Below are positions 19,040 to 41,024 of a stretch of DNA of 64,000 nt, piece after piece. A program made the translations under genes and the position numbers. Origin of the DNA: Candidatus Kaiserbacteria bacterium (GTDB lineage Bacteria; Patescibacteriota; Minisyncoccia; Phycocordibacterales; UBA2100); NCBI GenBank assembly GCA_016217965.1, contig JACRFI010000009.1, forward strand, positions 3,144-67,143, given 5' to 3'. Below the pieces are notes generated by a model that made no database searches, was not told the DNA's origin, and worked only from the letters and a program-made list of their open reading frames with translations. The number at the start of each line of letters is the position of its first letter. The stretch's first letter is position 1.

Positions 19040-19100
19040 ATTGAACGCAACACTACCATTAAAAGTGCGTCCATCATATAGTAATGCAGAAGCTATCCCT
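19040..19100. promoter_or_regulatory. Divergent promoter spacer between the nucleotidyltransferase-cupin fusion (minus) and the GT4 gene (plus)
   Basis: 61 bp between divergent start codons. Confidence 0.2.
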
Positions 19101-24018: not shown

Positions 24019-24082
24019 GCCACCCCACTCTCTTGCGTTTCTGCGTATAGACAAGACTGAGATTTCGTGGCAAAATCACGGC

Positions 24083-25611: not shown

Positions 25612-26651
25612 AAACGCTGAAGATCGGAAAACACGCCATAGGAAAAGGCGTCTTTATAATCGCAGAAGCCGGGGTTAACCATAACGGAAGACTTGATCTT
25701 GCCCTAAAACTTGTTGATGCCGCAGCTGAGTGCGGTGCGGACGCTATCAAGTTCCAGACCTTCAGAGCACCAGAACTCGTAACGAGTGCTGGAAAAATGG
25801 CAGCATATCAAAAAAGAAACACAGGAAAAAATGAGAGCCAACTCTCGATGCTGCGCAAACTCGAACTCCGCGAGTCATTGTATGCGCCGATCATCGCACG
25901 GTGCAAAAAGCGCAACATACTGTTTCTTTCTGCCGCGCATGGCGGATTTGCCAGCGTTGACCTTCTTGCCGCTCTCGGAGTCCCCGCATTTAAATTCAGC
26001 TCAGCCGACCTCACCAATCTTCCGGTCCTATCCCACGCTGCCAGATACAAAAAGCCGATGATAATCTCGACTGGCATGGCAACAATGCAAGAGATAGAAG
26101 AGGCAGTGCGCGCGATCAAAAAGGAGGGCAACGACAAGATCATCATCTTGCAATGCACGACGGATTACCCGACTGATCCTAAAGAAGTGAACCTCCGCGC
26201 AATGCAAACGATCGCCCGCCGATTAGGAACTCATGTCGGTTTCTCAGACCACACCTCTGGCATGCAAGCTGCCATTATGGCGGCAACGCTCGGCGCGTGT
26301 GTGATAGAGAAACATCTGACACTCGATAAACATATGCAGGGCCCCGACCACGCAGCATCAGAAAATCCTCGGGAGTTCCGAAAGTTTGTGGATGCCATCC
26401 GGCTTGTCGAGCCTCTGCTCGGCTCCCGCACGAAAAAACCAACAGTCTCAGAGAAAAAATATATCCCGCTGGTCAGAAAGAGCATTGTCGCAAACTGTTC
26501 TATAAAAAAGGGAGAACTGTTCACTCGCGATTCAATCGCGATAAAGCGCCCAGGAACCGGGCTCCATCCGCGCTTTTTCTCCAGATTCCTTGGGAAAAAA
26601 GCGAAACGGAACATAGAGAAGGACGCGCCCCTCTTGAGAAGCGACATATGA
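25608..26651 (+). CDS. neuB: Nonulosonic acid synthase (NeuB/PseI/LegI family, with SAF domain)
   Basis: FIIAEAGVNHNG, KFQT, C-terminal SAF-like domain; 347 aa. Confidence 0.9.
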   Translation: MKTLKIGKHAIGKGVFIIAEAGVNHNGRLDLALKLVDAAAECGADAIKFQTFRAPELVTSAGKMAAYQKRNTGKNESQLSMLRKLELRESLYAPIIARCKKRNILFLSAAHGGFASVDLLAALGVPAFKFSSADLTNLPVLSHAARYKKPMIISTGMATMQEIEEAVRAIKKEGNDKIIILQCTTDYPTDPKEVNLRAMQTIARRLGTHVGFSDHTSGMQAAIMAATLGACVIEKHLTLDKHMQGPDHAASENPREFRKFVDAIRLVEPLLGSRTKKPTVSEKKYIPLVRKSIVANCSIKKGELFTRDSIAIKRPGTGLHPRFFSRFLGKKAKRNIEKDAPLLRSDI

Positions 26652-27796
26652 AAAAGAAATCGATCCTTGTGATTACTGGCACGCGAGCCGAGTATGGCCT
26701 CTTGTATGAGACGATACAGGCGCTTCAGAAGAGCCAACGGCTTTCGATGCGACTTCTCGTTACCGGCATGCATACGGTACGGAAGTACGGGTATACGTTG
26801 CAGGGCATACGGCGCGATAACATTCCGATCGCCTGCGTGGTGCCGATTCACGAACACGACACAATGCTTCAGGCCTTCGCCAAAGAAGTGCTCGGGATTG
26901 ACGCATATTGCGTTAAAACTCGCCCCGACATGATCCTCGTTCTCGGCGATCGGGGCGAACCGCTCGCCGGCGCGGTCGTGGCGGCTAACCTCAATATCCC
27001 CGTCGCACATATTCACGGAGGCGACACGAGCGGCATAACAACAGCAGACGAACTTGTGAGGCACAGCATCACCAAACTTTCGCACTTACACTTCCCCGTC
27101 TCGCCTGCGAGCGCGAAACGGCTTCGTGCGCTGGGTGAAGAATCGTGGCGCATCCACATGCTGGGAGCGCCTGGGATCGAACACATCGCAAGCGCCCGCT
27201 TCCCTTCTCGCGCTGCCGTGGCCAGAAAGCACGGGCTCGACCCGCAGAAACAATGGATACTAGTCGTGCACCACCCGACGCCGTTTGAGAAGGTGCCAAT
27301 GGAAAAACAAATACGCCCTCTTCTTTCCTCACTCACATCGCAGCAAAGACATGAAGAAAAGATCATCGTCTATCCCAATACTGATACGGGATCCGCTGTT
27401 TTTATTCGCGAGATCGATCGTGTTAGAAATGAACCGCGCGTGCACGTGTATCCCAATTTGGAGCGTGATGAATATCTACACCTTTTCCGCCATAGCGCAT
27501 GCATAATTGGAAATTCAAGTTCAGGAATTATTGAATCAACGCCACTCCACGTGCCTTCAATAACCATCGGCAGCAGGCAGGACGGGCGATCTCGCGGCAA
27601 AAACGTAATCAGTGCATCGTACGACGCATCATCGATCGAACGAGCGCTTAGGAAGGCGCTTGGTGCCACATTTGCGTCGCGGACGAAGAACGCAAAAAGC
27701 CCATACGGGTCGGGAAATGTGGGCAGTTCTATCGTGAAGCGACTTGAGAAATACGTGTGCGATCCACGGTTGTTCCATAAGCGAGTCGCCTCGTAA
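26648..27796 (+). CDS. neuC: UDP-N-acetylglucosamine 2-epimerase (hydrolysing), NeuC/LegG-like
   Basis: Typical N-terminus ILVITGTRAEYGLL, plus HIHGGD. Confidence 0.9.
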   Translation: MKKKSILVITGTRAEYGLLYETIQALQKSQRLSMRLLVTGMHTVRKYGYTLQGIRRDNIPIACVVPIHEHDTMLQAFAKEVLGIDAYCVKTRPDMILVLGDRGEPLAGAVVAANLNIPVAHIHGGDTSGITTADELVRHSITKLSHLHFPVSPASAKRLRALGEESWRIHMLGAPGIEHIASARFPSRAAVARKHGLDPQKQWILVVHHPTPFEKVPMEKQIRPLLSSLTSQQRHEEKIIVYPNTDTGSAVFIREIDRVRNEPRVHVYPNLERDEYLHLFRHSACIIGNSSSGIIESTPLHVPSITIGSRQDGRSRGKNVISASYDASSIERALRKALGATFASRTKNAKSPYGSGNVGSSIVKRLEKYVCDPRLFHKRVAS

Positions 27797-27797
27797 T

Positions 27798-28595
27798 ATG
27801 CAAAAAAAACAAACTCTACAAAGCGCCATATTTCTAGGCCGAAAGGAGGGCGCGCTCGGCGCGCTCCAATATCTTTTACAGCAAAAGGTCGCGATCAAGA
27901 TGGTGGTGAATCCAGGGGGCACAGACCTATCACTCCGCTCTTTCGCGCAAAAGCACAAGATCCGATTCCTCACCGACGACAGGATGCTGTACCGCACGAT
28001 AGAAAGAAAAGATGCATCAATTCGCGCAGACCTCGTCATCTCATACTTGTACCCAAAAAAGATCCGCCGTCCGCTTATCGAACATGCAAAACTCGGCTGC
28101 ATTAACTTTCACCCCGCTCCTCTTCCCGAGTATAGGGGCCGCGCGGGCTACAACACCGCGATCCTAGAAAAAAAGAAACGATTCGGGGTAAGCGCCCACG
28201 TTATCGATTCGGAGACATTTGATAGCGGCCCCATCATAGAGGTTCTTCGCTTCCGCATTGACCCTTCACACGAAAGCGTTCTTTCTCTCGAAAGACTCAC
28301 TCAGAAAAAACTGCTCGAGCTGTTCAAGATCGTTATCGCACGTTATAAAAAAGGCGCAGCTATTAAAACGAAGCAAAATCGGGGCGGCCTCTACTTGACC
28401 GCAGAGGGCCTTGAATCCATGAAACGCATCCTGCCGTCAGATTCCGCAAAAGACATACACCGAAAGATCCGCGCATTTTTCTTCCCGCCATATCGCGGCG
28501 CGACCATTGAAATTAAAGGAGAGACATTTACACTGGTCGACGACGAGATGCTTTCCGAACTTGGGAAACTTCTCAAAACACAGCGACACGTATGA
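27798..28595 (+). CDS. Formyltransferase (Fmt/ArnA-N-terminal-like sugar N-formyltransferase)
   Basis: Formyl_trans_N fold with the HPAPLPEYRG motif; 266 aa. Sits where N-acetyltransferases sit in canonical Pse/Leg operons. A8 tract at codons 2-4. Confidence 0.75.
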   Translation: MQKKQTLQSAIFLGRKEGALGALQYLLQQKVAIKMVVNPGGTDLSLRSFAQKHKIRFLTDDRMLYRTIERKDASIRADLVISYLYPKKIRRPLIEHAKLGCINFHPAPLPEYRGRAGYNTAILEKKKRFGVSAHVIDSETFDSGPIIEVLRFRIDPSHESVLSLERLTQKKLLELFKIVIARYKKGAAIKTKQNRGGLYLTAEGLESMKRILPSDSAKDIHRKIRAFFFPPYRGATIEIKGETFTLVDDEMLSELGKLLKTQRHV

Positions 28596-29725
28596 AGATC
28601 TACCCTACGGCGCGGCCATATATTGGAGTACGTGAAGAAAGATATGTGCTTCAGGCACTTCGCTCCGGAGTTCTCAGCATTGGGCCGTTCATCGAAAGAT
28701 TCGAGAAAGCGTTCGCAAAACGCTACGGCGTAAAATATGCCTGCGCGGTTTCGAGCGGTACGGCAGCTCTCCACCTCGCGCTCCTTGCGGCAGGAATACG
28801 TGAAGGCGACGAAGTGATCACGTCCCCGTATTCATTCGTTGCCTCCGCAAACGCGATCCTCTACGTCGGCGCAAAGCCGATATTCGCCGATATAGATGCG
28901 CGAACCTACAACATCGATCCGCGCGATATCGAAAGGCGAATTACGAAAAAAACAAAAGCCATTATGCCGATCCACATTTTCGGCCAACCCGCAGACATGT
29001 CAGCTATTATGAGGATCGCAAAGAAGCATAAGCTCCTCGTCATCGAGGACGCGTGCGAATCACTGCTATCAGAATGGAAAGGAAAGAAGGTAGGAACGTT
29101 CGGAAAAGCCGGCACATTCGCATTTTATCCGAACAAACAAATGACGACCGGAGAGGGTGGCATGATCGTGACGAACGACGCGTCTATGGATGCGCTGTGC
29201 CGTAGTATGCGCAATCAGGGGCGTGGGGAGGATGCGGCTTGGCTTGACCACCCGCGCCTCGGATTCAACTACCGCATGGATGAACTCTCAGCTGCTGTGG
29301 GGTTAGCCCAAATAGAGAATATACACTTCCTTCTGAAGGAGCGCGCAAAGATTGCCGCGTGGTATACCGAATTCTTCAAGGCGCTTGCTGATGATATCGA
29401 CGTGCCGTATATTGCGCCGCACGCCTCGCATACCTGGTTTGTATACGTGCTTCGCCTCAAGAATGGAGGCATAGACCGCGATGCATTCATTCAGGACTTA
29501 GCCCGTAGGGGCGTGCGATGCCGGCCGTATTTGCCTTCGATCCACCTCTTTCAGTTCTATCGAAAGAGATTCGGTTTTGCAAAAGGCGACTTGCCTGTTT
29601 CAGAAGCAGTAAGCGCGGGGACATTTGCGATCCCCTTTTACATCGGGCTCAAAAAGAGCGATGTACGCAGCATCGTACGGACCATAGAGCAAACACTTGC
29701 GATCCATGAAAAAAAACACGTTTAA
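28592..29725 (+). CDS. DegT/DnrJ/EryC1/StrS-family PLP aminotransferase (PseC/LegC-like)
   Basis: SSGTAALHLAL; the PLP-binding Lys lies in the ...FYPNKQMTTGEGG... region. Confidence 0.9.
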   Translation: MKIYPTARPYIGVREERYVLQALRSGVLSIGPFIERFEKAFAKRYGVKYACAVSSGTAALHLALLAAGIREGDEVITSPYSFVASANAILYVGAKPIFADIDARTYNIDPRDIERRITKKTKAIMPIHIFGQPADMSAIMRIAKKHKLLVIEDACESLLSEWKGKKVGTFGKAGTFAFYPNKQMTTGEGGMIVTNDASMDALCRSMRNQGRGEDAAWLDHPRLGFNYRMDELSAAVGLAQIENIHFLLKERAKIAAWYTEFFKALADDIDVPYIAPHASHTWFVYVLRLKNGGIDRDAFIQDLARRGVRCRPYLPSIHLFQFYRKRFGFAKGDLPVSEAVSAGTFAIPFYIGLKKSDVRSIVRTIEQTLAIHEKKHV

Positions 29726-30662
29726 AAACAAAACAGTGGTGGTGACGGGAGGCACGGGAAGTGTCGGCAGTGAAATAGTGCGCCAACTTTTGAGGACAAA
29801 CGTCCGGCAGGTGCGCATCTTTAGCCGCGACGAGCACAAACAGCACGAGTTGAAACATGAGATAGGCGGCGACAAACGAGTTCGATTCCTCATCGGCGAC
29901 GTTCGAGACAAAGAACGAATGGACTTTGCATTCAAAGGCGTCGACATCTGCTTCCATGCTGCAGCCCTAAAACACCTGCCAATGTGCGAGTACAACCCGT
30001 TCGAAGCAGTAAAAACCAACATCATCGGTACGCAGAACGTGATAGAAGTTGCCATTCGCAATAATGTCGAGAAGGTACTGGCGATCTCCACCGATAAGGC
30101 AGCGGACCCGGCATCAGTCCTCGGCGCGTCAAAACTGATGATGGAGCGCCTCGTTACAGCCGCGAACGCCACAGTCGGAAAAACCCGCACGCGATTCGCG
30201 TCGGTGCGGTTCGGGAACGTCCTCAATTCCCGCGGCTCGGTCGTACCTATTTGGCATAAGCAACTTGAAGCGGGAAAGAATATCACCGTAACCGACCCGA
30301 GCGCCACGCGCTTTCTCATGGAAATATCGGATGCGGCTGGACTCGTATTCCAGGCACTCGACGTCATGCGTGGCGGAGAAATATTCGTGCTCAAGATGAA
30401 GCCGGCAGCACGCATCATTGATCTTGCAAAAGAGTTCTTGAAGAAGCATCCAAAAGGCGCCAAGAGAAAGATCGATATCATCGGCCTCCGCCCCGGCGAG
30501 AAACTGCACGAAGTCTTGATGACGGAAGATGAATCGGGACACGCCGTTGAGATCAAGGGGATGTTCGTCATTTTGCCGCAAAGCGCGGATCCCCACAGCA
30601 TGCCGAAACTAGACTACAAAAAAGCGAAACGCGCGCCCCGTGGCGCATATAAGTCTAACTAG
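29706..30662 (+). CDS. UDP-GlcNAc 4,6-dehydratase (PseB/FlaA1/CapD-type, Polysacc_synt_2)
   Basis: VVVTGGTGSVGSEIV, the FlaA1-like TDKAADP motif, and YGASKLMMER. An upstream in-frame TTG at 29697 is possible. Confidence 0.85.
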   Translation: MKKNTFKNKTVVVTGGTGSVGSEIVRQLLRTNVRQVRIFSRDEHKQHELKHEIGGDKRVRFLIGDVRDKERMDFAFKGVDICFHAAALKHLPMCEYNPFEAVKTNIIGTQNVIEVAIRNNVEKVLAISTDKAADPASVLGASKLMMERLVTAANATVGKTRTRFASVRFGNVLNSRGSVVPIWHKQLEAGKNITVTDPSATRFLMEISDAAGLVFQALDVMRGGEIFVLKMKPAARIIDLAKEFLKKHPKGAKRKIDIIGLRPGEKLHEVLMTEDESGHAVEIKGMFVILPQSADPHSMPKLDYKKAKRAPRGAYKSN

Positions 30663-31552
30663 AGCGCACTCCATTTTGAGGGATCAACAACCTCCTCGGG
30701 AACACTTACAAATTCCCTCTCAAGATCGTTCATCCATTGCTCCCCGTGGAGCGTATGGACAGATGCAAGGATCTCTCCGAGCTCTCGTAGGCTCTGCACG
30801 CCAAAGACAACATGTTGTATCCTCTCGCGGGAGAGCGCGTATTGAAATGCAGCCGAAAGTGGCGTGAGGCCAGCACTCTTTGCTATGTCATGAAATCGCT
30901 CGATGAAGGGGCGGGCAAGCGATACGCGTGCCGGAATTTTCTCTTTGTCCATGGCAAGTAACCCTTGAAGAAGCACGCTGCGTGCAAATACTCGCGCGTG
31001 AGTGATGGCTGCTTCTTTGAAAAAACCCGCCGTATCGAGCCTTCTATCGAGTGCGTTGTACGGGACCTGGATGTATTCAAGTCCTGCTCGTGCCGCATGA
31101 AGTGCATCCCTTACTTGATAGATCGAAACGCCGACATGCCGGGTAAGCTCTGCTCGCCGTACACTCTCAAGGGCTTCGATAGTGCCAGCGTCATACATGC
31201 TCTCTGGTGCGTGCAAAAGATATCCATCTAAGACTTCTATACGAAGCCGCTTGAGAGACGCTTCGAGCTCTGAACGGATCTGAGACGCAGCTGACGCAGC
31301 GCGCAATTTGGAAATGACAAACACTACATCCTTGAGGCGGCGGCTCTCGATCCACTCGCCGAGCACGCTCTCCGCCTCCCCATATGAGGCTGCCGTATCG
31401 AATGTGTTGATGCCGCCATCATATGCCGCATCCAAAATTAGAAACGCGTCCTCTTTTGTCGGCTGCGCATTGCCCGAAACCCCATACGGCATTCCAAGCT
31501 GCACCGTCCCAAGAACAAGCCGCGAGCGCTCCATTTTGGAACTATACCCCAT
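30659..31552 (-). CDS. Aldo/keto reductase family oxidoreductase
   Basis: AKR (beta/alpha)8 motifs. Its stop overlaps the converging pseB-like stop (CTAG). Confidence 0.7.
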   Translation of the reverse strand: MGYSSKMERSRLVLGTVQLGMPYGVSGNAQPTKEDAFLILDAAYDGGINTFDTAASYGEAESVLGEWIESRRLKDVVFVISKLRAASAASQIRSELEASLKRLRIEVLDGYLLHAPESMYDAGTIEALESVRRAELTRHVGVSIYQVRDALHAARAGLEYIQVPYNALDRRLDTAGFFKEAAITHARVFARSVLLQGLLAMDKEKIPARVSLARPFIERFHDIAKSAGLTPLSAAFQYALSRERIQHVVFGVQSLRELGEILASVHTLHGEQWMNDLEREFVSVPEEVVDPSKWSAL

Positions 31553-31592: not shown

Positions 31593-32177
31593 CTATCTCA
31601 CAGGGTATGCTACAGGCCGCAGGATCCATTCGGTTGCATCCAAAATATCGGCAGCGACGTACGAGGGCTTAAAGTCCTCTTTCCATGTCTTCCATTCCTT
31701 GTCGCCATAGCCCGTTTTAACCAAAATTGTCGTGCATCCTACCGACACGCCGGCAGCGATGTCACTCACTTTGTCGCCCACGAGGGCGCAGCGCCTTAGG
31801 TCTAGATGCATGTCCTTTGCCGCCCTGTGCAAGAGCCCGGGTTTCGGTTTTCTGCAATCGCAGTCGACGAGGTATTCATTCTTGCCATGTTCCGGATGGT
31901 GCGGGCAATGGTAGTAGCGATCGATATGCGCGCCTTCTTTCTCTAGCTCTTTCGAGAGTGCTGTATGAAGAACGTGTATCTGTGATTCAGGATAGTAGCC
32001 TCGCGCCACGCCCGCCTGATTTGTAATGACAACAACAGGAATATGCCTCTCGTTCAACAAACGTACCGCGCGTACAACACCCGGTATGAGCACCAGATCT
32101 TTTGGATCGTGAAGATACTCGACTTCTTCATTGATGACGCCGTCTCGATCGAGAAAGACAACATCGATTGTATTCAT
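31593..32177 (-). CDS. gmhB: D,D-heptose 1,7-bisphosphate phosphatase (GmhB; HAD-like)
   Basis: FLDRDGVIN (DxDGT-type), CxHxxxxxC...CxCRKP zinc motif. Confidence 0.85.
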   Translation of the reverse strand: MNTIDVVFLDRDGVINEEVEYLHDPKDLVLIPGVVRAVRLLNERHIPVVVITNQAGVARGYYPESQIHVLHTALSKELEKEGAHIDRYYHCPHHPEHGKNEYLVDCDCRKPKPGLLHRAAKDMHLDLRRCALVGDKVSDIAAGVSVGCTTILVKTGYGDKEWKTWKEDFKPSYVAADILDATEWILRPVAYPVR

Positions 32178-32278
32178 ACCAATATTACGAAACTCGTCGA
32201 AGGCACACGTATTTTTGGCGGTATGAGCAACTCCTCCGTCAAAAATACGTGTGCCGAGAAAGAGTTTCGTAGTTCATA

Positions 32279-33559
32279 TTACTCCGCCCCTATCACTTCC
32301 ACCCGAGGCAGCGGCATGATGAATTTCCCGCCTGATTGCAAGAATTCTTTTTCCCGCTCCTTAAATTCCTCCAGGAAATGCCACGGTAAGAGGAGGAAAT
32401 AATCGGGCTTCTCCTTGCGTGCCTGCTCTTCGGAGATGATTGGAATATGGGAGCCGACGGTCTTCAGCCCCCATTTGTCCGGATTTCTCTCTGCGGCAGC
32501 CTTGATAGTAGGATAGCCCAAATTGCAGAACTGCAATGTGGTATTGCCTTTTGTTGATGCGCCATACACATACACTGTTTTCCCTTTCGCGACCTCACCT
32601 TTCACGAGAGAAACAAGCTGGTCCTTTAAAGACTCTGCGCGTGCGGCAAATTCATCGTAGATCTTTTTCTCGTACAGACCTAGGTTTTTTTCGTCGTCCC
32701 GCATCTTTTGCACACGCTCCTTAGCACCTGAGGCAAGTTGTATGCTCTTCCCTTTCCCTTTGTGCCGTGCGTATACGCGAAAACTGCCGCCGTTTATCTC
32801 ATTCAGTTCCGCATCGCATATTTCGAGGCCATTTTTCTCGAAAAGATATTCCAAGGGGCCAAGCGCATAGTACTCAAGGTGCTCGTGGCCGATATTGTCG
32901 TAATCAGTCTGCGTAAGCATCGACGGCAGATACATTTGCTGCACGATGAAAACTCCTTCGTCATCCAGGCACTCTTTAATATCTTTCATGAACGCATTCG
33001 GGTCTTCGAGATCATAGAACATCGCAATTGCAGTGATTGCTTTCGCCTTTTTCTCTCCAAATTCCTCTTTCCACGCTTTCGCATTGAAGTAATCGTTAAT
33101 GAGATGAATGCCAGGATCGTTGATATATTCCACGATATTCTTTGAAGGCTCGTAGGCAACTCGCTCCAACCCTTCGACTGCGTAGCTCTTCAAGAGCGTT
33201 CCGTCGTTAGCCCCGATATCGATCACATAGTCACCTGCCTTGAGGCCAGCAAGTCCTGTGGCTTTGCGCGCGATACCCTGAAGCTCTTCGGTCATCGTTC
33301 TGTTGACCCCGGACCGGTACCAATACTGTCTATAGAGCGCATCATGCGAGAGCGTGTGCTTCAGCTGCAATAGCCCGCACCCACCTTTCGATTTGTCGCA
33401 GAGGACAAGTTCGAGCGGATATTTCCCCCACTCTTTCTCGATCGCCTCATCCTTGATGAAATCAGAAACATACACTTCTCCGAGTGAGAGAATCGGGATC
33501 AAGGGCGATGTGCCGCACACGCGGCATGATTCTCGTACGGCAATGACTTCTTGTTTCAT
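32279..33559 (-). CDS. NDP-sugar C-methyltransferase, second paralog (Zn-ribbon + MT + C-methyltransferase C-terminal domain)
   Basis: CRVCG...CDKSKGGCGLLQL N-terminus; same architecture as 8139-9365. Confidence 0.7.
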   Translation of the reverse strand: MKQEVIAVRESCRVCGTSPLIPILSLGEVYVSDFIKDEAIEKEWGKYPLELVLCDKSKGGCGLLQLKHTLSHDALYRQYWYRSGVNRTMTEELQGIARKATGLAGLKAGDYVIDIGANDGTLLKSYAVEGLERVAYEPSKNIVEYINDPGIHLINDYFNAKAWKEEFGEKKAKAITAIAMFYDLEDPNAFMKDIKECLDDEGVFIVQQMYLPSMLTQTDYDNIGHEHLEYYALGPLEYLFEKNGLEICDAELNEINGGSFRVYARHKGKGKSIQLASGAKERVQKMRDDEKNLGLYEKKIYDEFAARAESLKDQLVSLVKGEVAKGKTVYVYGASTKGNTTLQFCNLGYPTIKAAAERNPDKWGLKTVGSHIPIISEEQARKEKPDYFLLLPWHFLEEFKEREKEFLQSGGKFIMPLPRVEVIGAE

Positions 33560-33562
33560 ACT

Positions 33563-34153
33563 CTATTTTCTTATGCCGGGCAGCGTGTCTAAATATTCGC
33601 ACCAGCCGTGATAAATAAGTTCGTGCATCTCTTGGATGCGCGCGGTTTCTTCCGAAGGAACCGCGACTACAAGATCTGCCGCGTCCGCGAGCGTCCCGCC
33701 CTTTGCTCCTGTGAGGACTATGGTAACGAGGCCTTTCTTGCGTGCCGCGCCCAAAGCGGCGAGCACATTCTTCGATCTCCCGCTGGTCGTGAGCGCGACG
33801 AGAATATCCCCCGTGGCGCCCAACGCGTCGACCTGACGAGCGAATACATCGTCAAAAGAATAATCATTTGCGATCGCCGTTAAGGCTCCAACAGGAAAAA
33901 GGAGCGATATCCCAGGAAGCGCCCTTCGATCGTCCTTGTATCTACATAGCAGTTCGCCGACGAAATGCTCTGCGTCGGCTGCGGATCCACCGTTCCCGCA
34001 CGCGAGTACCTTCTTGCCCTCTTTGAGCGCCGAAGCTAACATATCCGCGCCACGCGCTGCATGTTCGAGTATCGTGTCCGTCTTCAAAACCACGTCTTGG
34101 TGCCTCCTGAGAGCATCCTTTAATACATCTTCCGCTTTCATCGTCTGTATCAT
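33563..34153 (-). CDS. gmhA: Phosphoheptose isomerase (GmhA, SIS domain)
   Basis: Aligns to E. coli GmhA (KVLACGNGGSAADAEHF...TTSGRSKNV). Start set at the internal ATG (MIQTM). Confidence 0.85.
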   Translation of the reverse strand: MIQTMKAEDVLKDALRRHQDVVLKTDTILEHAARGADMLASALKEGKKVLACGNGGSAADAEHFVGELLCRYKDDRRALPGISLLFPVGALTAIANDYSFDDVFARQVDALGATGDILVALTTSGRSKNVLAALGAARKKGLVTIVLTGAKGGTLADAADLVVAVPSEETARIQEMHELIYHGWCEYLDTLPGIRK

Positions 34154-34154
34154 A

Positions 34155-35165
34155 TCAGGCTTCGAAGACTTCGTACTTTTCAGAGGGTCTAGTAAAAATG
34201 ATCTGGCTCCCCTTTGTTTCAAACCGAAAAGGAACGCATAGAAGCTCCTTGAGCGCCGTACGGACTGCACTTCTTTTTTCTCTAGGAACAAAGAAAAGCA
34301 TAAATCCGCCGCCGCCTGCGCCAAGTATCTTTCCGCCAATAGCCCCTGCTGCTCGGCCTCTCTCGTAGATCGAATCAAGGTGATCATTCGTCACTACAGA
34401 GGAAAGTCCGCGCTTCAGCATCCATCCTTCGTGGAGAAGTTCGCCGAAGTCAGTGAGCCTCCCGCGAGGCTCCAAGATGCGCTTCCCCTCATCTACCATT
34501 GCCTGCATTCTTCGCAGCTCTGCTGCTTTCTTAGGGATTGCTTTAATTTGTTTCCCTGCGATGTCTGAAGCACGACGGGAAAATCCGGTAAAAAAGAGAA
34601 GAAGATGGTCCTCAAGATCGTGAACGCGTTTCTTTGAGATATCGATGGGCGATACTTTTATTCCACCCTTCCCGCCAAAAGTTATCTTGTTGAGGCCCCC
34701 GAACGCTGCCGCCACTTGGTCCTGAGAGCCTACGTTCTCTTTGATGCGCTTCTGCTCTACATAGATGGCATCGTCGGCAAGCTTTTTCTTTGTAGTGTGC
34801 TCATCGCGGAGAGCTTGGAGCCCATGCAGAAGCCCTACAGTAAATGAAGAACTTGAGCCAAGTCCTGACATCGCAGGAAGATCGGCAGTATGCATGATTT
34901 CCACGCCGTCCTTAAAATGCAGAAACTTCAAGCTCTCTCGCACTGCTGGGTGCTCAATGTCGTCGTGTACTGTTGTATTTTCGTTTATCGCATATCGTAC
35001 CCTGTACCGATATTCAAAAAAAGGCGGAAAGTGGCGAAGTATAAGGTAACAGTACTTGTCGATAGATCCAGAGAGAACAGCTCCTCCATGGTTCTGGTAC
35101 CAGGCCGGGTAATCAGTCCCTCCTCCAAAAAAGGAAATACGAAACGGGGTACGCGTGATCACCAT
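34155..35165 (-). CDS. hddA: D-glycero-alpha-D-manno-heptose 7-phosphate kinase-like GHMP kinase (HddA family)
   Basis: MVITRTPFRISFFGGGTD N-terminus and the GHMP motif GLGSSSSF. Confidence 0.8.
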   Translation of the reverse strand: MVITRTPFRISFFGGGTDYPAWYQNHGGAVLSGSIDKYCYLILRHFPPFFEYRYRVRYAINENTTVHDDIEHPAVRESLKFLHFKDGVEIMHTADLPAMSGLGSSSSFTVGLLHGLQALRDEHTTKKKLADDAIYVEQKRIKENVGSQDQVAAAFGGLNKITFGGKGGIKVSPIDISKKRVHDLEDHLLLFFTGFSRRASDIAGKQIKAIPKKAAELRRMQAMVDEGKRILEPRGRLTDFGELLHEGWMLKRGLSSVVTNDHLDSIYERGRAAGAIGGKILGAGGGGFMLFFVPREKRSAVRTALKELLCVPFRFETKGSQIIFTRPSEKYEVFEA

Positions 35166-35168
35166 AGG

Positions 35169-36185
35169 TCAATCGCGCGTGAAGTGGTCACGCCAATAGT
35201 TGAGCGTATCTTCAATTGTCTTTGAGAAAGGAATGGTTGATTTCCAGCCGGTCGCCTTTTCAAATTTCTTGTTGGAAGGAATCTGGAGCGTAACGTCGGA
35301 CGGGCGCAGCCGGGCAGGATCAACTTGCACTTTGATGTTCTTAACCTTTGAGAGCGCAAGTAATTTTTTTACCATTTCGCCTATGGTCATCGTCTCGTTG
35401 CCTCCGATGTTATACACCTCGCCTGGTGGACACGTGTGCACCATTGTCCAATATGCCTCGACAGCGTTTCGCACGTCCATGAATGTCCGGATACTGTCCA
35501 GATTCCCGACTTTAAGGACCGGCTTCTGCTTGCCCGCTTCGATCGCTGCTACTTGCTTCGCGAAATTTGAGAGCGCGAACACTTCTCCGCGACGCGGACC
35601 AGTGTGTGTGAACATCCGCGTGCGGATCGTCTTTATCTTCCAGGATAACCAGTACTGCAGTCCTAACATATCCTCCGCAACCTTCGAGACTGCATAGGGA
35701 GAGGCAGGACGGAAAGAATTGTTTTCTGTAATGGGAACCTCGTCCTTCCGCACTTGGCCGTACACTTCGGAAGAAGAGCAAATATGGATTGTGGGATCGT
35801 ACCAAGTCTCAGCTTTTAATGCCCGCACTGCCTCAAGGAGTGTTGCGGTGCCGATGACATTTGTTTGGAGTGTTGCAAGAGGCGCAGCAAAGCTAAAGTC
35901 CACATATGATTGTGCCGCGAGATGAAAAATAAATTCCGGCCTATGTTTTGCGAGCACTGCATGAACTGACGGAAAATCGGTAAGGTCCCCGTACTCGATG
36001 GTGACTTTATCGAGGATATGTTTGATGTTGTCCTTGGGCGATCTCCAACGCGCAAAACCTACAATGGTATATTCCGGCGCCTTCGCGAGAATATAGTCCG
36101 CTAAATGGCTGCCCACAAATCCTGTGAGCCCTGTTATCACGACCGTACGCTTCTTGCTACCTGCCTTTTTACGCATCGCCCACAC
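35169..36185 (-). CDS. GDP-mannose 4,6-dehydratase family enzyme (Gmd/DmhA-like; likely GDP-heptose 4,6-dehydratase)
   Basis: ITGLTGFVGSHL and PRRGEVFALSNFAKQ...GNLDSIRTFMDV match conserved Gmd blocks. Confidence 0.7.
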   Translation of the reverse strand: MWAMRKKAGSKKRTVVITGLTGFVGSHLADYILAKAPEYTIVGFARWRSPKDNIKHILDKVTIEYGDLTDFPSVHAVLAKHRPEFIFHLAAQSYVDFSFAAPLATLQTNVIGTATLLEAVRALKAETWYDPTIHICSSSEVYGQVRKDEVPITENNSFRPASPYAVSKVAEDMLGLQYWLSWKIKTIRTRMFTHTGPRRGEVFALSNFAKQVAAIEAGKQKPVLKVGNLDSIRTFMDVRNAVEAYWTMVHTCPPGEVYNIGGNETMTIGEMVKKLLALSKVKNIKVQVDPARLRPSDVTLQIPSNKKFEKATGWKSTIPFSKTIEDTLNYWRDHFTRD

Positions 36186-36209
36186 TATACATACGATGGC
36201 ATGTTCTGT

Positions 36210-37121
36210 CTAAACATGCCTTTCGTGCCACGCAATCGTCGCGCGAAGGCCTGTTTCGAGATCAACAAGCGGAGTCCATCCAAGTTCCTTTTTTGCGCGG
36301 CGTATGTCCGCAACGACCCTATCAGGCCGCTCTGCAACACTTTCAAATTGCATCACCCCCTCATACCCAATGATCTTACCGATAAGAAGCGCAAGGTCAC
36401 GGATGGAGACTTCAATCCCTGAGGCTATATTAAGCGGCGTATCGGAATCGTAGCTCTCAGCTGCAGCAAGGATAGCCCTTGCCGCGTCTTCAACGAAGAG
36501 AAAATCTCGCGTTGACGCACCCCCTTGTTCGAGGAGTTGCGGCTTGTCCTCACGTTTTGCGGCTGCGATTTTCTTTATGAGTTTGGGGATCACGAAATCA
36601 TCCCTCTCTCCTGGGCCATACATGCTTGCAAGGAGTAGATGTGCGCTCTCTAATCCCTGCGCGCGTTGCTTTTTCGCTTCGAGAAGGATTTCCCGTTTCG
36701 CGCGGGCATATGCCGCGTGCTGGGGCTTTGGGTCTCCGCTCCACAAAGAATCTTCAGAGAGGGGCAACGCAGCATCCATCCCGTACTCTGTAAGGCTCCC
36801 TGCCATAACAAACTTCTCGGCTCCGCTTTCCCGCGCAGCACCGAGCATATTCATTCCCATCAGAAAATTGTCTTCATAGATGCGATTGGCGTTATCGCGA
36901 TGAAAAAGAATGCCACCTGTAATGCCGGCAAGATGAATAATGATGTGCGCTCCGCGAACCGCTTCCCTCGCTGCTTCTTTTGTCCGCAGGTCTCCTTTCT
37001 CACTCGAGTGCAATGCGATATTTTTTTCAGGAACGCCAATGGACTGCAAGCGCGCACATACGGCACGCCCTACAAATCCGCGTGCGCCTGTGAGGAGGAT
37101 TTTTTTATCACGCAGTTCCAT
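36210..37121 (-). CDS. GDP-sugar 3,5-epimerase/4-reductase (GDP-L-fucose synthase Fcl/WcaG-like)
   Basis: LLTGARGFVG and Fcl-like architecture. Start at the internal ATG (MELRDKK). Confidence 0.65.
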   Translation of the reverse strand: MELRDKKILLTGARGFVGRAVCARLQSIGVPEKNIALHSSEKGDLRTKEAAREAVRGAHIIIHLAGITGGILFHRDNANRIYEDNFLMGMNMLGAARESGAEKFVMAGSLTEYGMDAALPLSEDSLWSGDPKPQHAAYARAKREILLEAKKQRAQGLESAHLLLASMYGPGERDDFVIPKLIKKIAAAKREDKPQLLEQGGASTRDFLFVEDAARAILAAAESYDSDTPLNIASGIEVSIRDLALLIGKIIGYEGVMQFESVAERPDRVVADIRRAKKELGWTPLVDLETGLRATIAWHERHV

Positions 37122-37131
37122 GTCTTCTATG

Positions 37132-37959
37132 CTATATAGCGCGGAGAAAATATCGTGCGAGTCCCACGAAACGCATCGTGCCGTGCAACATAAAGAATGG
37201 AGCCGCGTATGCTTTCCCCGCACGGATCGCTCTCCACGAATACAGAAAGGGATAACGGATAAGGAGATGGAAAAGCATCGACGGCGCCCGATTCGGGTGC
37301 TTTCTGCAAAATTCACCATCTCCTTTGCCGTACATCTGGAATTTCTTTAGGTAAATGCCAAGATCGGCAAAGTGGTGCTGGACCACTTTCGTTTTGCCCA
37401 CGCCAACTCGAAGTTCCGGAAATTTTGAGAGCCGATACATGAAATCGGTGTCATCAACGGTCGATGTTAGGCTGTCGTTAAATCGTACTTTTTTGAATAC
37501 GCTCTTTTTATAGATGGATGGCGCCGTGCTTATCATCGTTCGCGGCCCGGGCGCATTCTGCGTCAATTCCCACAACGCACCTTCTGCTCTGTGCCAATAT
37601 CCAGTATCAGAAGATGATACGAGGCCGGCCTGCACAATATCCAAATCGTATTCCACCATATCTTTGTACAACGCCTCCAAGTCCTCCTTTTTTAAGCGAT
37701 GGTCTCCATCGATCATCGCAACAAGCTCATTTCTAGCCGCATCAATACCGATCTGCCTATCGCGCGTGAGATTTGAGTTCTTGCTTACGATGGTGTGGAT
37801 GCCGGGGAATTCTCGCGCAATTGCAACCGTCTTGTCGGAAGAATTCCCATCAACAAGGATAACCTCGTCAGGGTTATTTGCATATACGCCAACGAGGCAA
37901 TCGCGTATGCGCTTCTCTTCATTGCGCACGCACACGACAACAGATAGTTTCTCTCCCAT
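37132..37959 (-). CDS. GT2 glycosyltransferase
   Basis: LSVVVCVRNEEKRI, DGNSSD, DGD motifs. Confidence 0.75.
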   Translation of the reverse strand: MGEKLSVVVCVRNEEKRIRDCLVGVYANNPDEVILVDGNSSDKTVAIAREFPGIHTIVSKNSNLTRDRQIGIDAARNELVAMIDGDHRLKKEDLEALYKDMVEYDLDIVQAGLVSSSDTGYWHRAEGALWELTQNAPGPRTMISTAPSIYKKSVFKKVRFNDSLTSTVDDTDFMYRLSKFPELRVGVGKTKVVQHHFADLGIYLKKFQMYGKGDGEFCRKHPNRAPSMLFHLLIRYPFLYSWRAIRAGKAYAAPFFMLHGTMRFVGLARYFLRAI

Positions 37960-37960
37960 A

Positions 37961-38728
37961 TTAGATTCCCTTTGAATCATGATCAGGAGGCCTCTGCACA
38001 ATATTTTTATTTATGAGAACGATGTCCGGGCGCGTTCGTAGGAATGTCACAACGTCGAGCGTAGAAAAATCGGGGTTTGTCGGATACAGCGCTTCGTATA
38101 CCGATCTAATCATGTCGTAATCCTCTTTCGTATCGAGCGTGACCCGAAGGTCCGGCCATACGAGAGTAGCCGTAGCCTGTATCGAGCCCACTTTAAATTT
38201 TTCTCGCTGAGAACGAATGGAATACCCTGCGTGTTCGCGGAGTGCCCTTTCGGTATCAACTTCTGCGGCCTTCACCAAGACGGGGAAGGCATACACGCGC
38301 ATCCCAATGCCTATAGGAAATGTCTTATCCAGTTCGCTGTCGGTACAATCGTAACCACCCTCCTCTAGAAGCTCGACGAGTTGGTCTACAAAACGCCAGT
38401 CGATCAAGGGATCGTCAGACATGCCCTGCACGAGAATATCGGCGCCGTGTTCTTTGCCCGCTGCGACGATGCGGCCGAGCACATCTTCCTCGCTGCCACG
38501 GAATACCGAGCAGCCTATTCTTTTGCAGAGTTCTTCGATCGCGTCGTCGGCAGCATTTGTGGTCGTCGCAACAACAACTTCGTCAGTCAATCTACTCCTC
38601 CGATGCCGTTCTACCACATGCTCGAGGACCGGCTTCCCTGCCATGGGAAGCAGCACTTTTCCGGGCAGCCGCGTCGATGTCATGCGTGCCTCGATGGTTG
38701 CAACGACTTTTTTGCCGTTACTTACCAT
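37961..38728 (-). CDS. Cytidylyltransferase of the CTP_transf_3 family (SpsF/CMP-NulO synthetase-like)
   Basis: VATIEARMTSTRLPGKVL, ~255 aa; resembles B. subtilis SpsF and PseF. Confidence 0.7.
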   Translation of the reverse strand: MVSNGKKVVATIEARMTSTRLPGKVLLPMAGKPVLEHVVERHRRSRLTDEVVVATTTNAADDAIEELCKRIGCSVFRGSEEDVLGRIVAAGKEHGADILVQGMSDDPLIDWRFVDQLVELLEEGGYDCTDSELDKTFPIGIGMRVYAFPVLVKAAEVDTERALREHAGYSIRSQREKFKVGSIQATATLVWPDLRVTLDTKEDYDMIRSVYEALYPTNPDFSTLDVVTFLRTRPDIVLINKNIVQRPPDHDSKGI

Positions 38729-39935
38729 AGAACGCTATCGTGTTTTTCAGAATCTTCGCCTGCCTTTCTGCCCTCGCCCAATCCCAGTAGTTCGTTTTAA
38801 ACGCGAGGATTTGGGGCTGTATTTTTTCGGCAACGGGGCACAAGCCGATCTGCCACGGCTGGTGCTTGTGTTTGTATATTTCTCCAAGAACTTTCTCCTT
38901 CCCCCCGAGATTTCTCGTTGGTTTTTGGAACATGGGCTCAAGGTAGGAGAGTTTCCACGTCGCATAAATGCCATCGCCGCCAAGCTCCATGAACTTTTTT
39001 CGAAACAGGACCCATTCTATCGAAGGATCAACAAGCCGCACCGGAAAGGCCCAATAGGAATGCGTCGCGTACGCTGGTGTCTCTTGGACCTTCAGCCACG
39101 AACAATCCCCGATCGCCTCCATAAACAGCTCCGCAACATCGATGCGCCGATCTGCAAGTTCATCGAGGTGTTCGAGCTGCCCTAGCGCGACGGCGGCACA
39201 CAGCTCTGGCATGCGATAGTTGAAACCCATCTGGACATGCCGGTTATAATTCGGATTTTGTATATCATCTTTTTTCACAATACCCTTCGCGCGCGATAAG
39301 CTCGCATAGCCGAGTCCTCCGAAGCGGCGCACCGCATCAGCGAGCTTTGGGTCGTTCGTGCACACGACCCCTCCTTCACCCCCCGTCATATGCTTTGTCG
39401 ACTGCAAGCTGAAGCTGGACATCTGTCCTATGGTCCCCACCATGCGTCCCTTGTATTTTGCCAAATAACATTGCGCATCGTCCTCAATGACAACTAGATT
39501 ATGCTTCTTGGCGATAGCCATGATCTTGCCGATATCTGGAGAAAGGCCATATAAAGCAACCGGCATGATTGCTTTTGTGCGGGGCGTAATGCATTTCTCA
39601 ATTGAAGCGGGGTCGATTTGAAATGTTCCCTCCACGACATCGGCAAATACGGGCATCGCATCTGCTTGAAGTATCGCCATGCATGTCGCCGACATTGTAA
39701 GAGGAGTTGTTATGACTTCATCCCCGGCGCGCACGCCTGCGGCAAAAAGCGCAGAATGGAGAGATGCCGTTCCGTTCACCTGAGCAACGGCATACTTGGT
39801 GCCTACCTTTTTTGCGAATTCCTTTTCAAATCGTCCGAGTATCCCGCTGTTCTTCGAATTAGAGAAATCTGTCGCGAGGACTTCCTCGACATACCTACGC
39901 TCCGCTTTGCCGATACGGCGGATCTTTTTCTTCAT
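38718..39935 (-). CDS. DegT/DnrJ/EryC1/StrS-family aminotransferase (SpsC-like)
   Basis: NGTASLHSAL and ...LQSTKHMTGGEGG. Confidence 0.85.
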   Translation of the reverse strand: MKKKIRRIGKAERRYVEEVLATDFSNSKNSGILGRFEKEFAKKVGTKYAVAQVNGTASLHSALFAAGVRAGDEVITTPLTMSATCMAILQADAMPVFADVVEGTFQIDPASIEKCITPRTKAIMPVALYGLSPDIGKIMAIAKKHNLVVIEDDAQCYLAKYKGRMVGTIGQMSSFSLQSTKHMTGGEGGVVCTNDPKLADAVRRFGGLGYASLSRAKGIVKKDDIQNPNYNRHVQMGFNYRMPELCAAVALGQLEHLDELADRRIDVAELFMEAIGDCSWLKVQETPAYATHSYWAFPVRLVDPSIEWVLFRKKFMELGGDGIYATWKLSYLEPMFQKPTRNLGGKEKVLGEIYKHKHQPWQIGLCPVAEKIQPQILAFKTNYWDWARAERQAKILKNTIAFYGK

Positions 39936-39971: not shown

Positions 39972-41024
39972 TCAAGCGCGTATGCCGTACATTGACCGCA
40001 ATTTCTTAAGTTGCGGCAAGAACTTCTTTGTGTTTTTTAAAAGGGATCCCCTCCCATCCGCAATACCGATAATGGCACGTGGTTTTCGTATGTCATCAAC
40101 AATTATTTCTCCGTATCCGCCGAGGAGACCGAGAGAAACGAGCCGTATGTTATGCCCTTTGATGGAACGGCGGCCAAGTGATTTTCCATAGTGTGCAGCC
40201 GTTTCGAGCAATGCAGAGAAGTTGTGTTTCTGGACCATTGATACGTCGATGCGATACACCACGTACTGCCCCCCTTTCGTTACGTCGCTTCGAAAACATC
40301 CCTTTCCGACATCGATGAGAATGGGCGCAGCGCTTCTATCCAATTCCTTGAGATGCTCACCTCCAATAATGCCGCGCGAATCCGCTGCTGCGATAACTGC
40401 GTTTGCCCCCTTACAGGCGTCTTTGATGCTTTTCGCTGCGCTGATTGGGGAAATTGTGTGTTCCGATTTAATGAGATTGAGGCCGGCTACAATAGTTTTT
40501 AACTTTTTCTGGTCGCGGCGATAGCCTCGCACATATGCACCGCGCTCCACGAGCTTCAACGCGATCTTGGCGCCGATGTTGCCAAACCCTATGACCGCGA
40601 TGTTCTTTCCCCCAACATCACCCGGTATCTGCCCCAAAAGAAAATCAATAGCCTCGACCGTGAGGTCATTGCCTTTGTACGTGACGATAGTCGATTTGCC
40701 CACTGCTTGCCGGACATGCCGCTCAATATTGCCGACATCATTTCTCCCATAATATAATTTCTCGACCTTCTTTTCTGAATCCAGAATGATGTAATCAACC
40801 TTGCCATCCACCATTCTCGCTATCCGGACTGCCGTAGAAACATCGCGGACGATAACCCCGCCATATACAAGCGTGTGTGTTTCCCGTAGCGGCGTCTCGT
40901 AATATCTGCCGCGCTCGAAGAGCCCGGAGGTGTTGCCTATCACAAATCCAGTTGGCCGCCTTCCTGCCCGCGCCTTCACATTTTTTACTATTCTCTCTAC
41001 CTTTTTCTGCATACCAGGCTGCAC
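39972..41024 (-). CDS. NAD(P)-binding Rossmann-fold oxidoreductase, function unknown
   Basis: GxGxxG motif IAVIGFGNIGAKIALKL. No further family assignment possible. Confidence 0.45.
   Translation of the reverse strand: MQPGMQKKVERIVKNVKARAGRRPTGFVIGNTSGLFERGRYYETPLRETHTLVYGGVIVRDVSTAVRIARMVDGKVDYIILDSEKKVEKLYYGRNDVGNIERHVRQAVGKSTIVTYKGNDLTVEAIDFLLGQIPGDVGGKNIAVIGFGNIGAKIALKLVERGAYVRGYRRDQKKLKTIVAGLNLIKSEHTISPISAAKSIKDACKGANAVIAAADSRGIIGGEHLKELDRSAAPILIDVGKGCFRSDVTKGGQYVVYRIDVSMVQKHNFSALLETAAHYGKSLGRRSIKGHNIRLVSLGLLGGYGEIIVDDIRKPRAIIGIADGRGSLLKNTKKFLPQLKKLRSMYGIRA

Follow-up and report, generated by a model that had tools for sequence, protein, structure and literature searches.

What sugar would be made by a heptose gene cluster that carries, in its midst, a gene for a sugar C-methyltransferase? 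The question is raised by a run of six genes at positions 31593-37121 of a 64,000-nucleotide stretch of the 95.9-kb contig JACRFI010000009.1 (assembly GCA_016217965.1), part of the metagenome-assembled genome of a Candidatus Kaiserbacteria bacterium. This whole stretch is referred to here as the window, and its host belongs to the Candidate Phyla Radiation (CPR), a group of bacteria thought to lack an outer membrane. Comparison of the encoded proteins with family models, solved structures and related loci makes it rather probable that the six genes together would make a nucleotide-activated, C-methyl-branched 6-deoxy-heptose. The open reading frame (ORF) listing places them on the minus strand, in one direction and nearly abutting, as follows:

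31593-32177, minus strand: GmhB-type HAD-IIIA heptose 1,7-bisphosphate 7-phosphatase, 194 amino acids (NF006506; TIGR00213)
32279-33559, minus strand: sugar C-methyltransferase (C-MT) of the TylCIII/TcaB9/MtmC family, 426 amino acids (Pfam Methyltransf_13, Methyltransf_23 and Methyltransf_14)
33563-34153, minus strand: GmhA-type sedoheptulose-7-phosphate isomerase, 196 amino acids (NF010546; TIGR00441; SIS_2)
34155-35165, minus strand: GHMP kinase of the HddA/WcbL type (heptose-7-phosphate 1-kinase, alpha-anomer series), 336 amino acids (GHMP_kinases_N and _C; HddA model)
35169-36176, minus strand: DmhA-type nucleoside diphosphate (NDP)-heptose 4,6-dehydratase, 335 amino acids (PF16363, 260 bits; PDB 7US5)
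36210-37121, minus strand: Fcl-family short-chain dehydrogenase/reductase (SDR), predicted 4-ketoreductase, 303 amino acids (GDP-fucose synthase model; PDB 8du0)

Gene list, direction and coordinates agree with the preliminary description of this DNA, whose end points coincide exactly with the gmhB stop codon and the ATG of the Fcl-like gene. Its proposal of a 6-deoxy-heptose-type pathway with a built-in C-MT is supported by the family assignments and by synteny conserved in five lineages. The starts of GmhA (ATG at 34153) and of the dehydratase (ATG at 36176) were refined by ortholog lengths and alignment consensus. Three of the junctions have spacers of only 1-3 nt; the Fcl-like gene is separated from the dehydratase gene by 33 nt, and the C-MT gene from gmhB by 101 nt.

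The nearest characterised systems are the GDP-6-deoxy-heptose pathways of Campylobacter jejuni (GmhA, HddA, GmhB and HddC, followed by DdahA/WcbK, DdahB and DdahC), Yersinia pseudotuberculosis (DmhA and DmhB) and Burkholderia pseudomallei (WcbL, WcbN, WcbM and WcbK). The window has in common with these a GmhA, a GHMP kinase, a GmhB, a dehydratase of the GDP-heptose type and a C4 reductase of the Fcl/Rmd family, but differs from them in placing a TylCIII-family C-MT between gmhA and gmhB and in having neither HddC nor a cupin epimerase in the cluster. In the pathway that we propose, the HddA/WcbL-type GHMP kinase would phosphorylate C1 to give the alpha-1,7-bisphosphate, GmhB would take off the 7-phosphate, and a nucleotidyltransferase encoded outside the cluster would form an NDP-heptose, most likely GDP-heptose, which the DmhA-type dehydratase would convert to the NDP-4-keto-6-deoxy-heptose. 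The Glu-His dyad of the C-MT would then deprotonate the carbon adjoining the 4-keto group, which would receive a methyl group from S-adenosylmethionine (SAM); by homology with TylCIII, TcaB9 and MtmC, the methylated carbon is most likely C3. The Fcl-family SDR would reduce the 4-keto group, probably without epimerisation, and the product would be passed to a glycosyltransferase for incorporation into a surface glycan or a protein glycan. Sequence comparison supplies the protein families, the type of the dehydratase, the synteny and the association of the C-MT clade with GDP-sugar enzymes; which nucleotide is used, whether methylation precedes reduction, which carbon is methylated, and the stereochemistry and acceptor of the product are put forward as proposals.

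Crucial to the assignment of a heptose substrate is the dehydratase. Its best match among solved structures is 7US5, a GDP-D-glycero-D-manno-heptose 4,6-dehydratase (308 bits, E 6e-91, 46% identity), followed by Rmd (2pk3, 211 bits), Gmd (~125 bits) and the dTDP-glucose dehydratases of the RmlB type (~107 bits); identity to the GDP-specific Rmd is 39-42%. The enzyme is accordingly placed, at the level of sequence comparison, with the DmhA type and not with Gmd or RmlB, and the possibility raised at the outset of a bona fide GDP-mannose dehydratase is not upheld by these scores (308 bits for 7US5 vs ~125 for Gmd). It carries a Ser-Ser-Glu motif at the position of the catalytic Thr-x-Glu motif of Gmd. 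Gmd itself is absent from the window, where the best tblastn match of a CPR Gmd is the DmhA-type gene (30-31% identity). A metagenome scan with an alignment of DmhA-type proteins yielded 80 further loci (49-73% identity), in which the dehydratase is adjoined by HddA-like genes in 30 cases and by HddC-like genes in 29, confirming the assignment of this dehydratase subfamily to heptose metabolism.

The remaining heptose enzymes are recognizable at the family level. GmhA scores 194.6 bits against NF010546, 185 bits against TIGR00441 (cutoff 209) and 80.6 bits against SIS_2; its alignments are near full length, with both NCBIfam scores slightly below the equivalog cutoffs. GmhB scores 178.6 bits against NF006506 (cutoff 178) and 138.6 bits against TIGR00213. 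Among NCBIfam models, the kinase fits HddA best, with 131 bits, far under the equivalog cutoff of 600. The solved structures that it matches best are 4usk (134.5 bits) and 4n3o (115 bits), the latter a putative heptose-7-phosphate kinase (HddA). The PDB label of 4usk reads only 'putative sugar kinase', and we take the protein to be the heptokinase WcbL of B. pseudomallei (PMC4691232). The kinase is classed as WcbL/HddA-type at the family level only. The Fcl-like protein gives 135 bits with the GDP-fucose synthase model (cutoff 500) and 134 bits with PDB 8du0. It was initially described as an Fcl-like epimerase/reductase, of which the reductase half stands, with the Ser/Tyr/Lys triad kept, and the epimerase half probably does not, since Cys109 and His179 of Escherichia coli GMER are replaced by Thr and Gly, respectively. 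A bifunctional epimerase/reductase is rejected for lack of this epimerisation acid/base pair, and the protein is read on these residues as probably a 4-ketoreductase only. In this respect it resembles the dedicated reductases of Campylobacter that work with separate cupin epimerases (PMC7949155).

The C-MT has the three-domain architecture of its family, comprising an N-terminal zinc domain (PF08421, Methyltransf_13, 42 bits), a class I SAM domain (PF13489, Methyltransf_23, 56 bits) and a C-terminal Methyltransf_14 domain (PF08484, 162.5 bits). TylCIII, TcaB9, KijD1 and MtmC are built in the same way and, like the C-MT of the window, have a Glu-His dyad, a SAM motif and a zinc site made up of four cysteines. 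In the alignment, the cysteine pairs of MtmC and TcaB9 correspond to Cys12, Cys15, Cys54 and Cys61 of the window protein, whose second pair is spaced as CX6C, vs CX2C in the TylCIII/TcaB9/KijD1/MtmC enzymes; the SAM motif is kept as VIDIGANDG, and the dyad Glu226-His227 (Glu224-His225 in TcaB9) is invariant in all 120 homologs compared. Among solved structures, the best match is MtmC (4rv9, 219 bits), with TcaB9 and KijD1 next (157 bits). These matches lie at the family level only, so that the enzyme does not cluster tightly with the dTDP-sugar enzymes, as had been considered a possibility in the preliminary description, and its clade is instead linked to GDP-sugar enzymes. Homologs number in the thousands, and those among the best 120 that carry a label are mostly from CPR bacteria. 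NCBI proteins labelled Kaiserbacteria match both the C-MT and the NeuB fusion protein described below at 100% identity.

Two groups of C-MT loci can be set beside the window, most of them on metagenome contigs and designated here by L numbers. In the heptose-linked group, the C-MT is 79-85% identical to that of the window and the flanking genes are readable in five independent lineages, namely the window itself, L005-L007, L008, L002 and L010, the last being the only informative one of four loci from a scan of a genome collection with the C-MT. In all five readable lineages with a C-MT at least 79% identical, the C-MT gene stays beside gmhA. The full order Fcl-like reductase, dehydratase, kinase, GmhA, C-MT and GmhB recurs in L005-L007 and in L008, with GmhB orthologs (57-62% identical) directly after the C-MT in L005-L008, and the core of dehydratase, kinase, GmhA and C-MT recurs in L002 and L010, where an HddC-like gene is inserted and no GmhB is seen nearby. 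Identities to the window proteins are 81-86% for the dehydratase, 66-72% for the kinase and 63-70% for GmhA, and 53-86% over the run as a whole. The recurrence of orthologs (57-86% identical) in the same order on independent metagenome contigs indicates that the genes are real and that their adjacency is not due to chance.

In the second group (L001, L003/L004, L015 and L016), the C-MT is ~60% identical (59-62%) and adjoins a true Gmd (TIGR01472, 517-556 bits, cutoff 415) and Fcl-like SDRs, with no heptose genes in L001, L003, L015 or L016; a Gmm-like Nudix gene is present in L015, and a second C-MT together with an RmlC-like gene in three of the four loci. Compared with the window, the dehydratase of these loci is ~31% identical and the Fcl-like reductase ~43% identical. 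Three of them (L001, L015 and L016) share the order RNase Y, Wzy_C, an unknown gene, Gmd, one or two Fcl-like SDRs, C-MT 1, C-MT 2 and RmlC-like, a Parcubacteria locus that points to C-methylated deoxyhexoses in several sampled CPR lineages. The dehydratase partner thus shifts from Gmd to the DmhA type exactly where gmhA, hddA and gmhB appear, and the pair of C-MT and reductase remains constant. Nothing else argues as strongly as this swap that the dehydratase product is the substrate of the C-MT and that the C-MT clade works on GDP-type sugars; judged by the partners of its members, the clade is assigned to GDP-sugars and not to dTDP-sugars. The comparison suggests that one and the same pair of C-MT and reductase works with Gmd in most of the CPR loci sampled and, in one subclade, with a DmhA-type enzyme and heptose genes, and that in the clade of the window a DmhA-type enzyme took the place of Gmd while gmhA, hddA and gmhB were recruited. 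Thirteen positions separate the heptose-linked from the Gmd-linked C-MTs, two of which (F220Y and C224G) lie next to the catalytic dyad; these clade-specific substitutions are compatible with an altered sugar pocket, of which they are no proof. Distant C-MT homologs (30-44% identical) also lie within 7 kb of the dehydratase gene in three of the 80 metagenome loci (L050, L052 and L079), which are unrelated to one another and have DmhA-type dehydratases (51-59% identical); the genes of L079 are divergent, with only 52 bp between them. It follows that this combination came about more than once.

Several observations weigh against a C-methylated heptose. The scores of the kinase, GmhA and the Fcl-like protein fall below the NCBIfam equivalog cutoffs, and every solved relative of the C-MT uses dTDP-sugars. 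Two residues of TcaB9, His181 and Tyr222, which are reported from TcaB9 mutagenesis to be important for catalysis, are replaced in the C-MT of the window by Asp183 and Gly224; PDB 4e2w deviates from wild-type TcaB9 at exactly His181, and the equivalent residues in the Gmd-linked C-MT clade are Asp and Cys. An HddC-type guanylyltransferase was not found in the window by tblastn with the HddC-like protein of L002, which matched only RfbF (TIGR02623, 304 bits) and RmlA (TIGR01207, 437 bits), nor within 10 kb in L005-L008, and no Kaiserbacteria-labelled match occurs among the 120 best database homologs of that protein. In a further locus, L021, a dehydratase 72% identical to that of the window is adjoined by a nucleotidyltransferase of the PF01467 type and not by HddC, and the nucleotide hence need not be GDP.

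Some of these observations could mean that the C-MT acts on a hexose-derived NDP-4-keto-6-deoxy sugar, linked to dTDP, CDP or GDP, and that its position merely reflects the packing of the genes of one glycan. Other 4-keto-6-deoxy sugars are plausible in this host, the window encoding RmlA, an RmlB-like SDR and a glucose-1-phosphate cytidylyltransferase (the 437-bit and 304-bit enzymes above). The dTDP-sugar substrates of the solved homologs, the sister C-MT clade that sits with Gmd and not with heptose genes, and the lack in the window of the nucleotidyltransferase for the heptose route would all fit as well. We nevertheless regard a hexose substrate as unlikely, given that the C-MT is found beside gmhA in five independent lineages while the outer genes vary, that the window has no Gmd, that the switch to a DmhA-type dehydratase coincides with the clade-specific changes in the C-MT, and that distant C-MTs occur near DmhA genes in L050, L052 and L079. 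The dTDP series, moreover, is probably already served by a second C-MT with a true RmlC, located as follows:

8139-9365: second TylCIII-family C-MT, beside a Wzy_C-TPR O-antigen-ligase-like protein at 5869-8082

Identity of this second C-MT is 29% with the first and 37% with its counterpart, the second C-MT, in other CPR loci. After it come an RmlC-type 3,5-epimerase, which scores 153 bits against solved dTDP enzymes, and an SDR. The segment 8139-10818 probably encodes a pathway of its own, leading to a C-methyl sugar linked to dTDP.

If the substrate of the C-MT is a heptose, as we favor, there remains the question of the nucleotide that carries it. The PF00483 enzymes of the window are RmlA and the glucose-1-phosphate cytidylyltransferase. 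In L002 and L010, the HddC-like gene sits between the kinase and GmhA genes, which in the window and L005-L008 abut or lie at most 16 nt apart; its product scores 170 bits with the HddC model and 183 bits with the mannose-1-phosphate guanylyltransferase model and is named accordingly by JGI. The dehydratase of the window is 81-84% identical to those of the HddC-bearing L002 and L010, and such similarity with and without HddC leads us to expect the same NDP-heptose, most likely GDP-heptose. Because no HddC is present in the window, GDP is deduced here from the dehydratase and the HddC-bearing sister loci. Of the GDP pathway originally suggested, the types of dehydratase, kinase, GmhA and GmhB are in agreement, and the guanylyltransferase is missing from the window.

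The same chemistry could, however, proceed on CDP-, ADP- or UDP-heptose. Two enzymes of the window might supply such a nucleotide, the CTP_transf_3 protein encoded upstream of the heptose genes (37961-38728, described below) and the following:

18209-19432, probable start ~19039: protein with a PF01467 domain (RfaE-domain-II/TagD-like HxGH nucleotidyltransferase) and a type-II phosphomannose-isomerase cupin domain

The first ~130 residues of the latter ORF look spurious. The PF01467 domain occupies the place that a PF00483 domain has in the usual bifunctional guanylyltransferase/phosphomannose isomerase (GMP/PMI) enzymes, and among NCBIfam models it comes closest to the heptose-1-phosphate adenylyltransferase domain (62 bits); the protein is a candidate for the absent sugar-1-phosphate nucleotidyltransferase. 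Consistent with a nucleotide other than GDP are the lack of HddC in the window and L005-L008 and the arrangement in L021 (10016-20983), where the PF01467 nucleotidyltransferase lies two genes downstream of the dehydratase, after an RmlC-like epimerase gene. CTP_transf_3, furthermore, is the sole nucleotidyltransferase found in those heptose loci that are linked to a fusion of an FAD-oxidoreductase with a NeuB synthase (FAD::NeuB; the window, L005, L006 and L018), and HddC is absent from them. On the other side, the dehydratase is 46% identical to the GDP-heptose enzyme and 39-42% identical to the GDP-specific Rmd, and its closest counterparts, at 81-84%, stand beside an HddC-like gene. RfaE-domain-II enzymes use the beta-anomer supplied by HldE-type kinases, vs the alpha-anomer type to which the GHMP kinase of the window belongs. 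CTP_transf_3 is an unlikely heptose activator, since it also partners the NeuB fusion in L017, a locus devoid of heptose genes. On balance, a nucleotide other than GDP seems to us quite unlikely. The L021 cluster also contains genes for a Nudix protein, thiamine diphosphate-dependent E1 alpha and beta subunits, SDRs, a B12-binding radical SAM enzyme and an HddA-like kinase, and hints at further carbon-branching chemistry on 6-deoxyheptoses in uncultivated bacteria.

The six genes are contiguous, as they had been described, but they do not form a self-contained cluster, being only the 3' half of a 12-gene operon that runs from 43440 to 30659 and includes a nonulosonic-acid branch. The other six genes of the operon, in order of transcription, are:

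41026-43440, minus strand: FAD-oxidoreductase (amine-oxidase/GLF-like)::NeuB synthase fusion, 804 amino acids, first gene of the operon (NeuB 299 bits; Amino_oxidase and GLF; TIGR03569 375 bits)
39972-41024, minus strand: NAD(P)-binding protein, constant partner of the FAD::NeuB fusion (weak Rossmann-domain matches only)
38718-39935, minus strand: DegT-family sugar aminotransferase (PF01041, 269 bits; LegC-family model, 202 bits)
37961-38728, minus strand: CTP_transf_3 cytidylyltransferase (PF02348, 98 bits; best solved match 6oew, a cytidylyltransferase, 116 bits)
37132-37959, minus strand: GT2 glycosyltransferase, candidate transferase (Glycos_transf_2, 83.5 bits)
30659-31552, minus strand: aldo/keto reductase, last gene of the operon (Aldo_ket_red, 128.6 bits)

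The GT2 gene is syntenic in L006 and its product 79% identical there, and the DegT aminotransferase is 81% identical in L006 and 51% in L018. The aldo/keto reductase is not kept at the end of the operon in the sister loci; an Aminotran_3 gene stands right after gmhB in L005-L007 and one gene further on in L008, behind a reverse-strand Cas2-like ORF. A terminator-like hairpin follows the aldo/keto reductase gene at 30647-30625. A promoter and terminator scan of the operon gave counts no higher than those of shuffled controls, and only this hairpin fits an operon end. GC content is uniform at ~0.51 throughout the window, and the region is therefore not a compositional island. The only sizeable spacer in the heptose run, 32178-32278 between the C-MT gene and gmhB, contains one further element:

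32202-32255, minus strand: perfect 16-bp inverted repeat (hairpin)

The arms of this repeat are unique in the window (chance expectation 0.02 matches), and the hairpin, which has no U-tract, is very stable, the folding energy of the 101-nt spacer being -44.9 kcal/mol (z = -7.4). The hairpin is absent from L005-L008, in which the C-MT gene and gmhB abut.

The operon partners of the heptose genes raise the further question of whether the two halves of the operon serve one product. The FAD::NeuB fusion has 554 homologs at E <= 1e-50, distributed over several phyla (CPR, Elusimicrobia, Omnitrophota, Thermodesulfobacteriota and others), and no characterised member was found among their family and name annotations. 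In L006, L017 and L018, the fusion is followed by the NAD(P)-binding protein and accompanied by a CTP_transf_3 gene, with an aminotransferase nearby; the CTP_transf_3 enzyme of the operon presumably activates the NeuB product. It is conceivable that the (C-methyl) 6-deoxyheptose is an intermediate that is freed from its nucleotide, extended by phosphoenolpyruvate through the NeuB domain to a 10- or 11-carbon ulosonic acid, and activated by CTP_transf_3. In the window and L006, the heptose genes share one tight operon with the fusion, NAD-binding, CTP_transf_3 and DegT genes, and this minus-strand operon itself encodes neither a hydrolysing 2-epimerase nor an N-acyltransferase that could feed NeuB. 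A Gmm-like Nudix gene lies beside or close upstream of the dehydratase gene in L002 and L008. Orthologs of both gene sets are adjacent again in the Elusimicrobia locus L018 (1-15448), where the fusion module is directly preceded by genes for DegT, a DmhA-type dehydratase, an HddA-type kinase, three SDRs, a Nudix protein and a GmhB-like HAD domain fused to an ABC transporter. Identities to the window in L018 are 60% for the dehydratase, 55% for the kinase, 40% for the GmhB-like HAD, 50% for the fusion, 39% for the NAD-binding protein, 34% for CTP_transf_3 and 51% for DegT, and no C-MT, GmhA or HddC occurs within 10 kb.

Against such an intermediate, a shared glycan would account for the adjacency equally well, L002, L008 and L010 have the heptose/C-MT module but lack the fusion, and L017 has the fusion, next to a classical PseB/DegT/acetyltransferase/NeuB set, but lacks heptose genes. 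A general link between DmhA and FAD::NeuB was considered and rejected, an FAD domain lying near the dehydratase in none of the 80 DmhA-type loci and a NeuB domain in one of them. The fusion could, in addition, be supplied by a second set of genes convergent with the operon:

23927-30662, plus strand: complete nonulosonic-acid pathway (CTP_transf_3, short-chain SDR, NeuB, hydrolysing 2-epimerase, DegT and PseB-like dehydratase)

The NeuB of this pathway scores 424 bits, above the cutoff, and a formyltransferase-like protein replaces the usual N-acetyltransferase. No 10-carbon ulosonic acid is known to us, and a role of the heptose as a precursor for NeuB appears improbable indeed; if true, it would yield a CMP-activated, branched 10- or 11-carbon ulosonic acid, to our knowledge not a described class of sugar acid.

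With the C-methyl-branched 6-deoxy-heptose as the favored product, another close parallel is the predicted route to GDP-virenose in Coxiella burnetii, comprising a Gmd (CBU_0689), a TylCIII-like protein (CBU_0691) and an Fcl (CBU_0688) (PMC3539893). Both systems would combine a GDP-4-keto-6-deoxy sugar with a TylCIII-family C-MT and an Fcl-family enzyme, but the substrate of the Coxiella route is taken to be GDP-mannose, a hexose, whereas the window has a DmhA-type dehydratase and heptose genes interleaved with the C-MT. The Coxiella heptose genes CBU_0674 (phosphoheptose isomerase) and CBU_0678 (reversed HldE) have locus numbers near those of the virenose genes (PMC5843353). TylCIII, TcaB9, KijD1 and MtmC are dTDP-sugar C3-methyltransferases, in contrast to the C-MT of the window with its GDP-sugar enzymes as partners, and action of a TylCIII-family C-MT on GDP-sugars is to date no more than a proposal, made for Coxiella virenose. 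The term 'C-methyl' is not used in a 2023 survey of Campylobacter heptose pathways (PMC10680097), and the open-access literature searched contained no description of a C-methyl heptose or of a C-MT tied to a heptose pathway. If our proposal is correct, CPR bacteria would make a C-branched 6-deoxyheptose, possibly a new monosaccharide, by means of a TylCIII-family C-MT active on GDP-sugars and heptoses, an enzyme that could find use in the chemoenzymatic synthesis of branched sugars.

Glycan synthesis takes up about two thirds of the 64-kb window (~5.8-63.5 kb), a heavy investment for a CPR genome, these being usually small. The genes concerned include two for NeuB, two for C-MTs, those for RmlA, the RmlB-like SDR and a CDP-glucose pyrophosphorylase, two Capsule_synth genes, one PMT_2 gene, an ABC exporter, and many GT2, GT4 and class I methyltransferase genes. 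They cover dTDP-, CDP- and CMP-linked nucleotide-sugar systems, and a fourth, probably GDP-linked, is implied by the dehydratase. The same region also encodes, at 60203-62164, a 653-amino-acid fusion of a GT4 glycosyltransferase with the N-terminal and central domains of UDP-glucose/GDP-mannose dehydrogenase.

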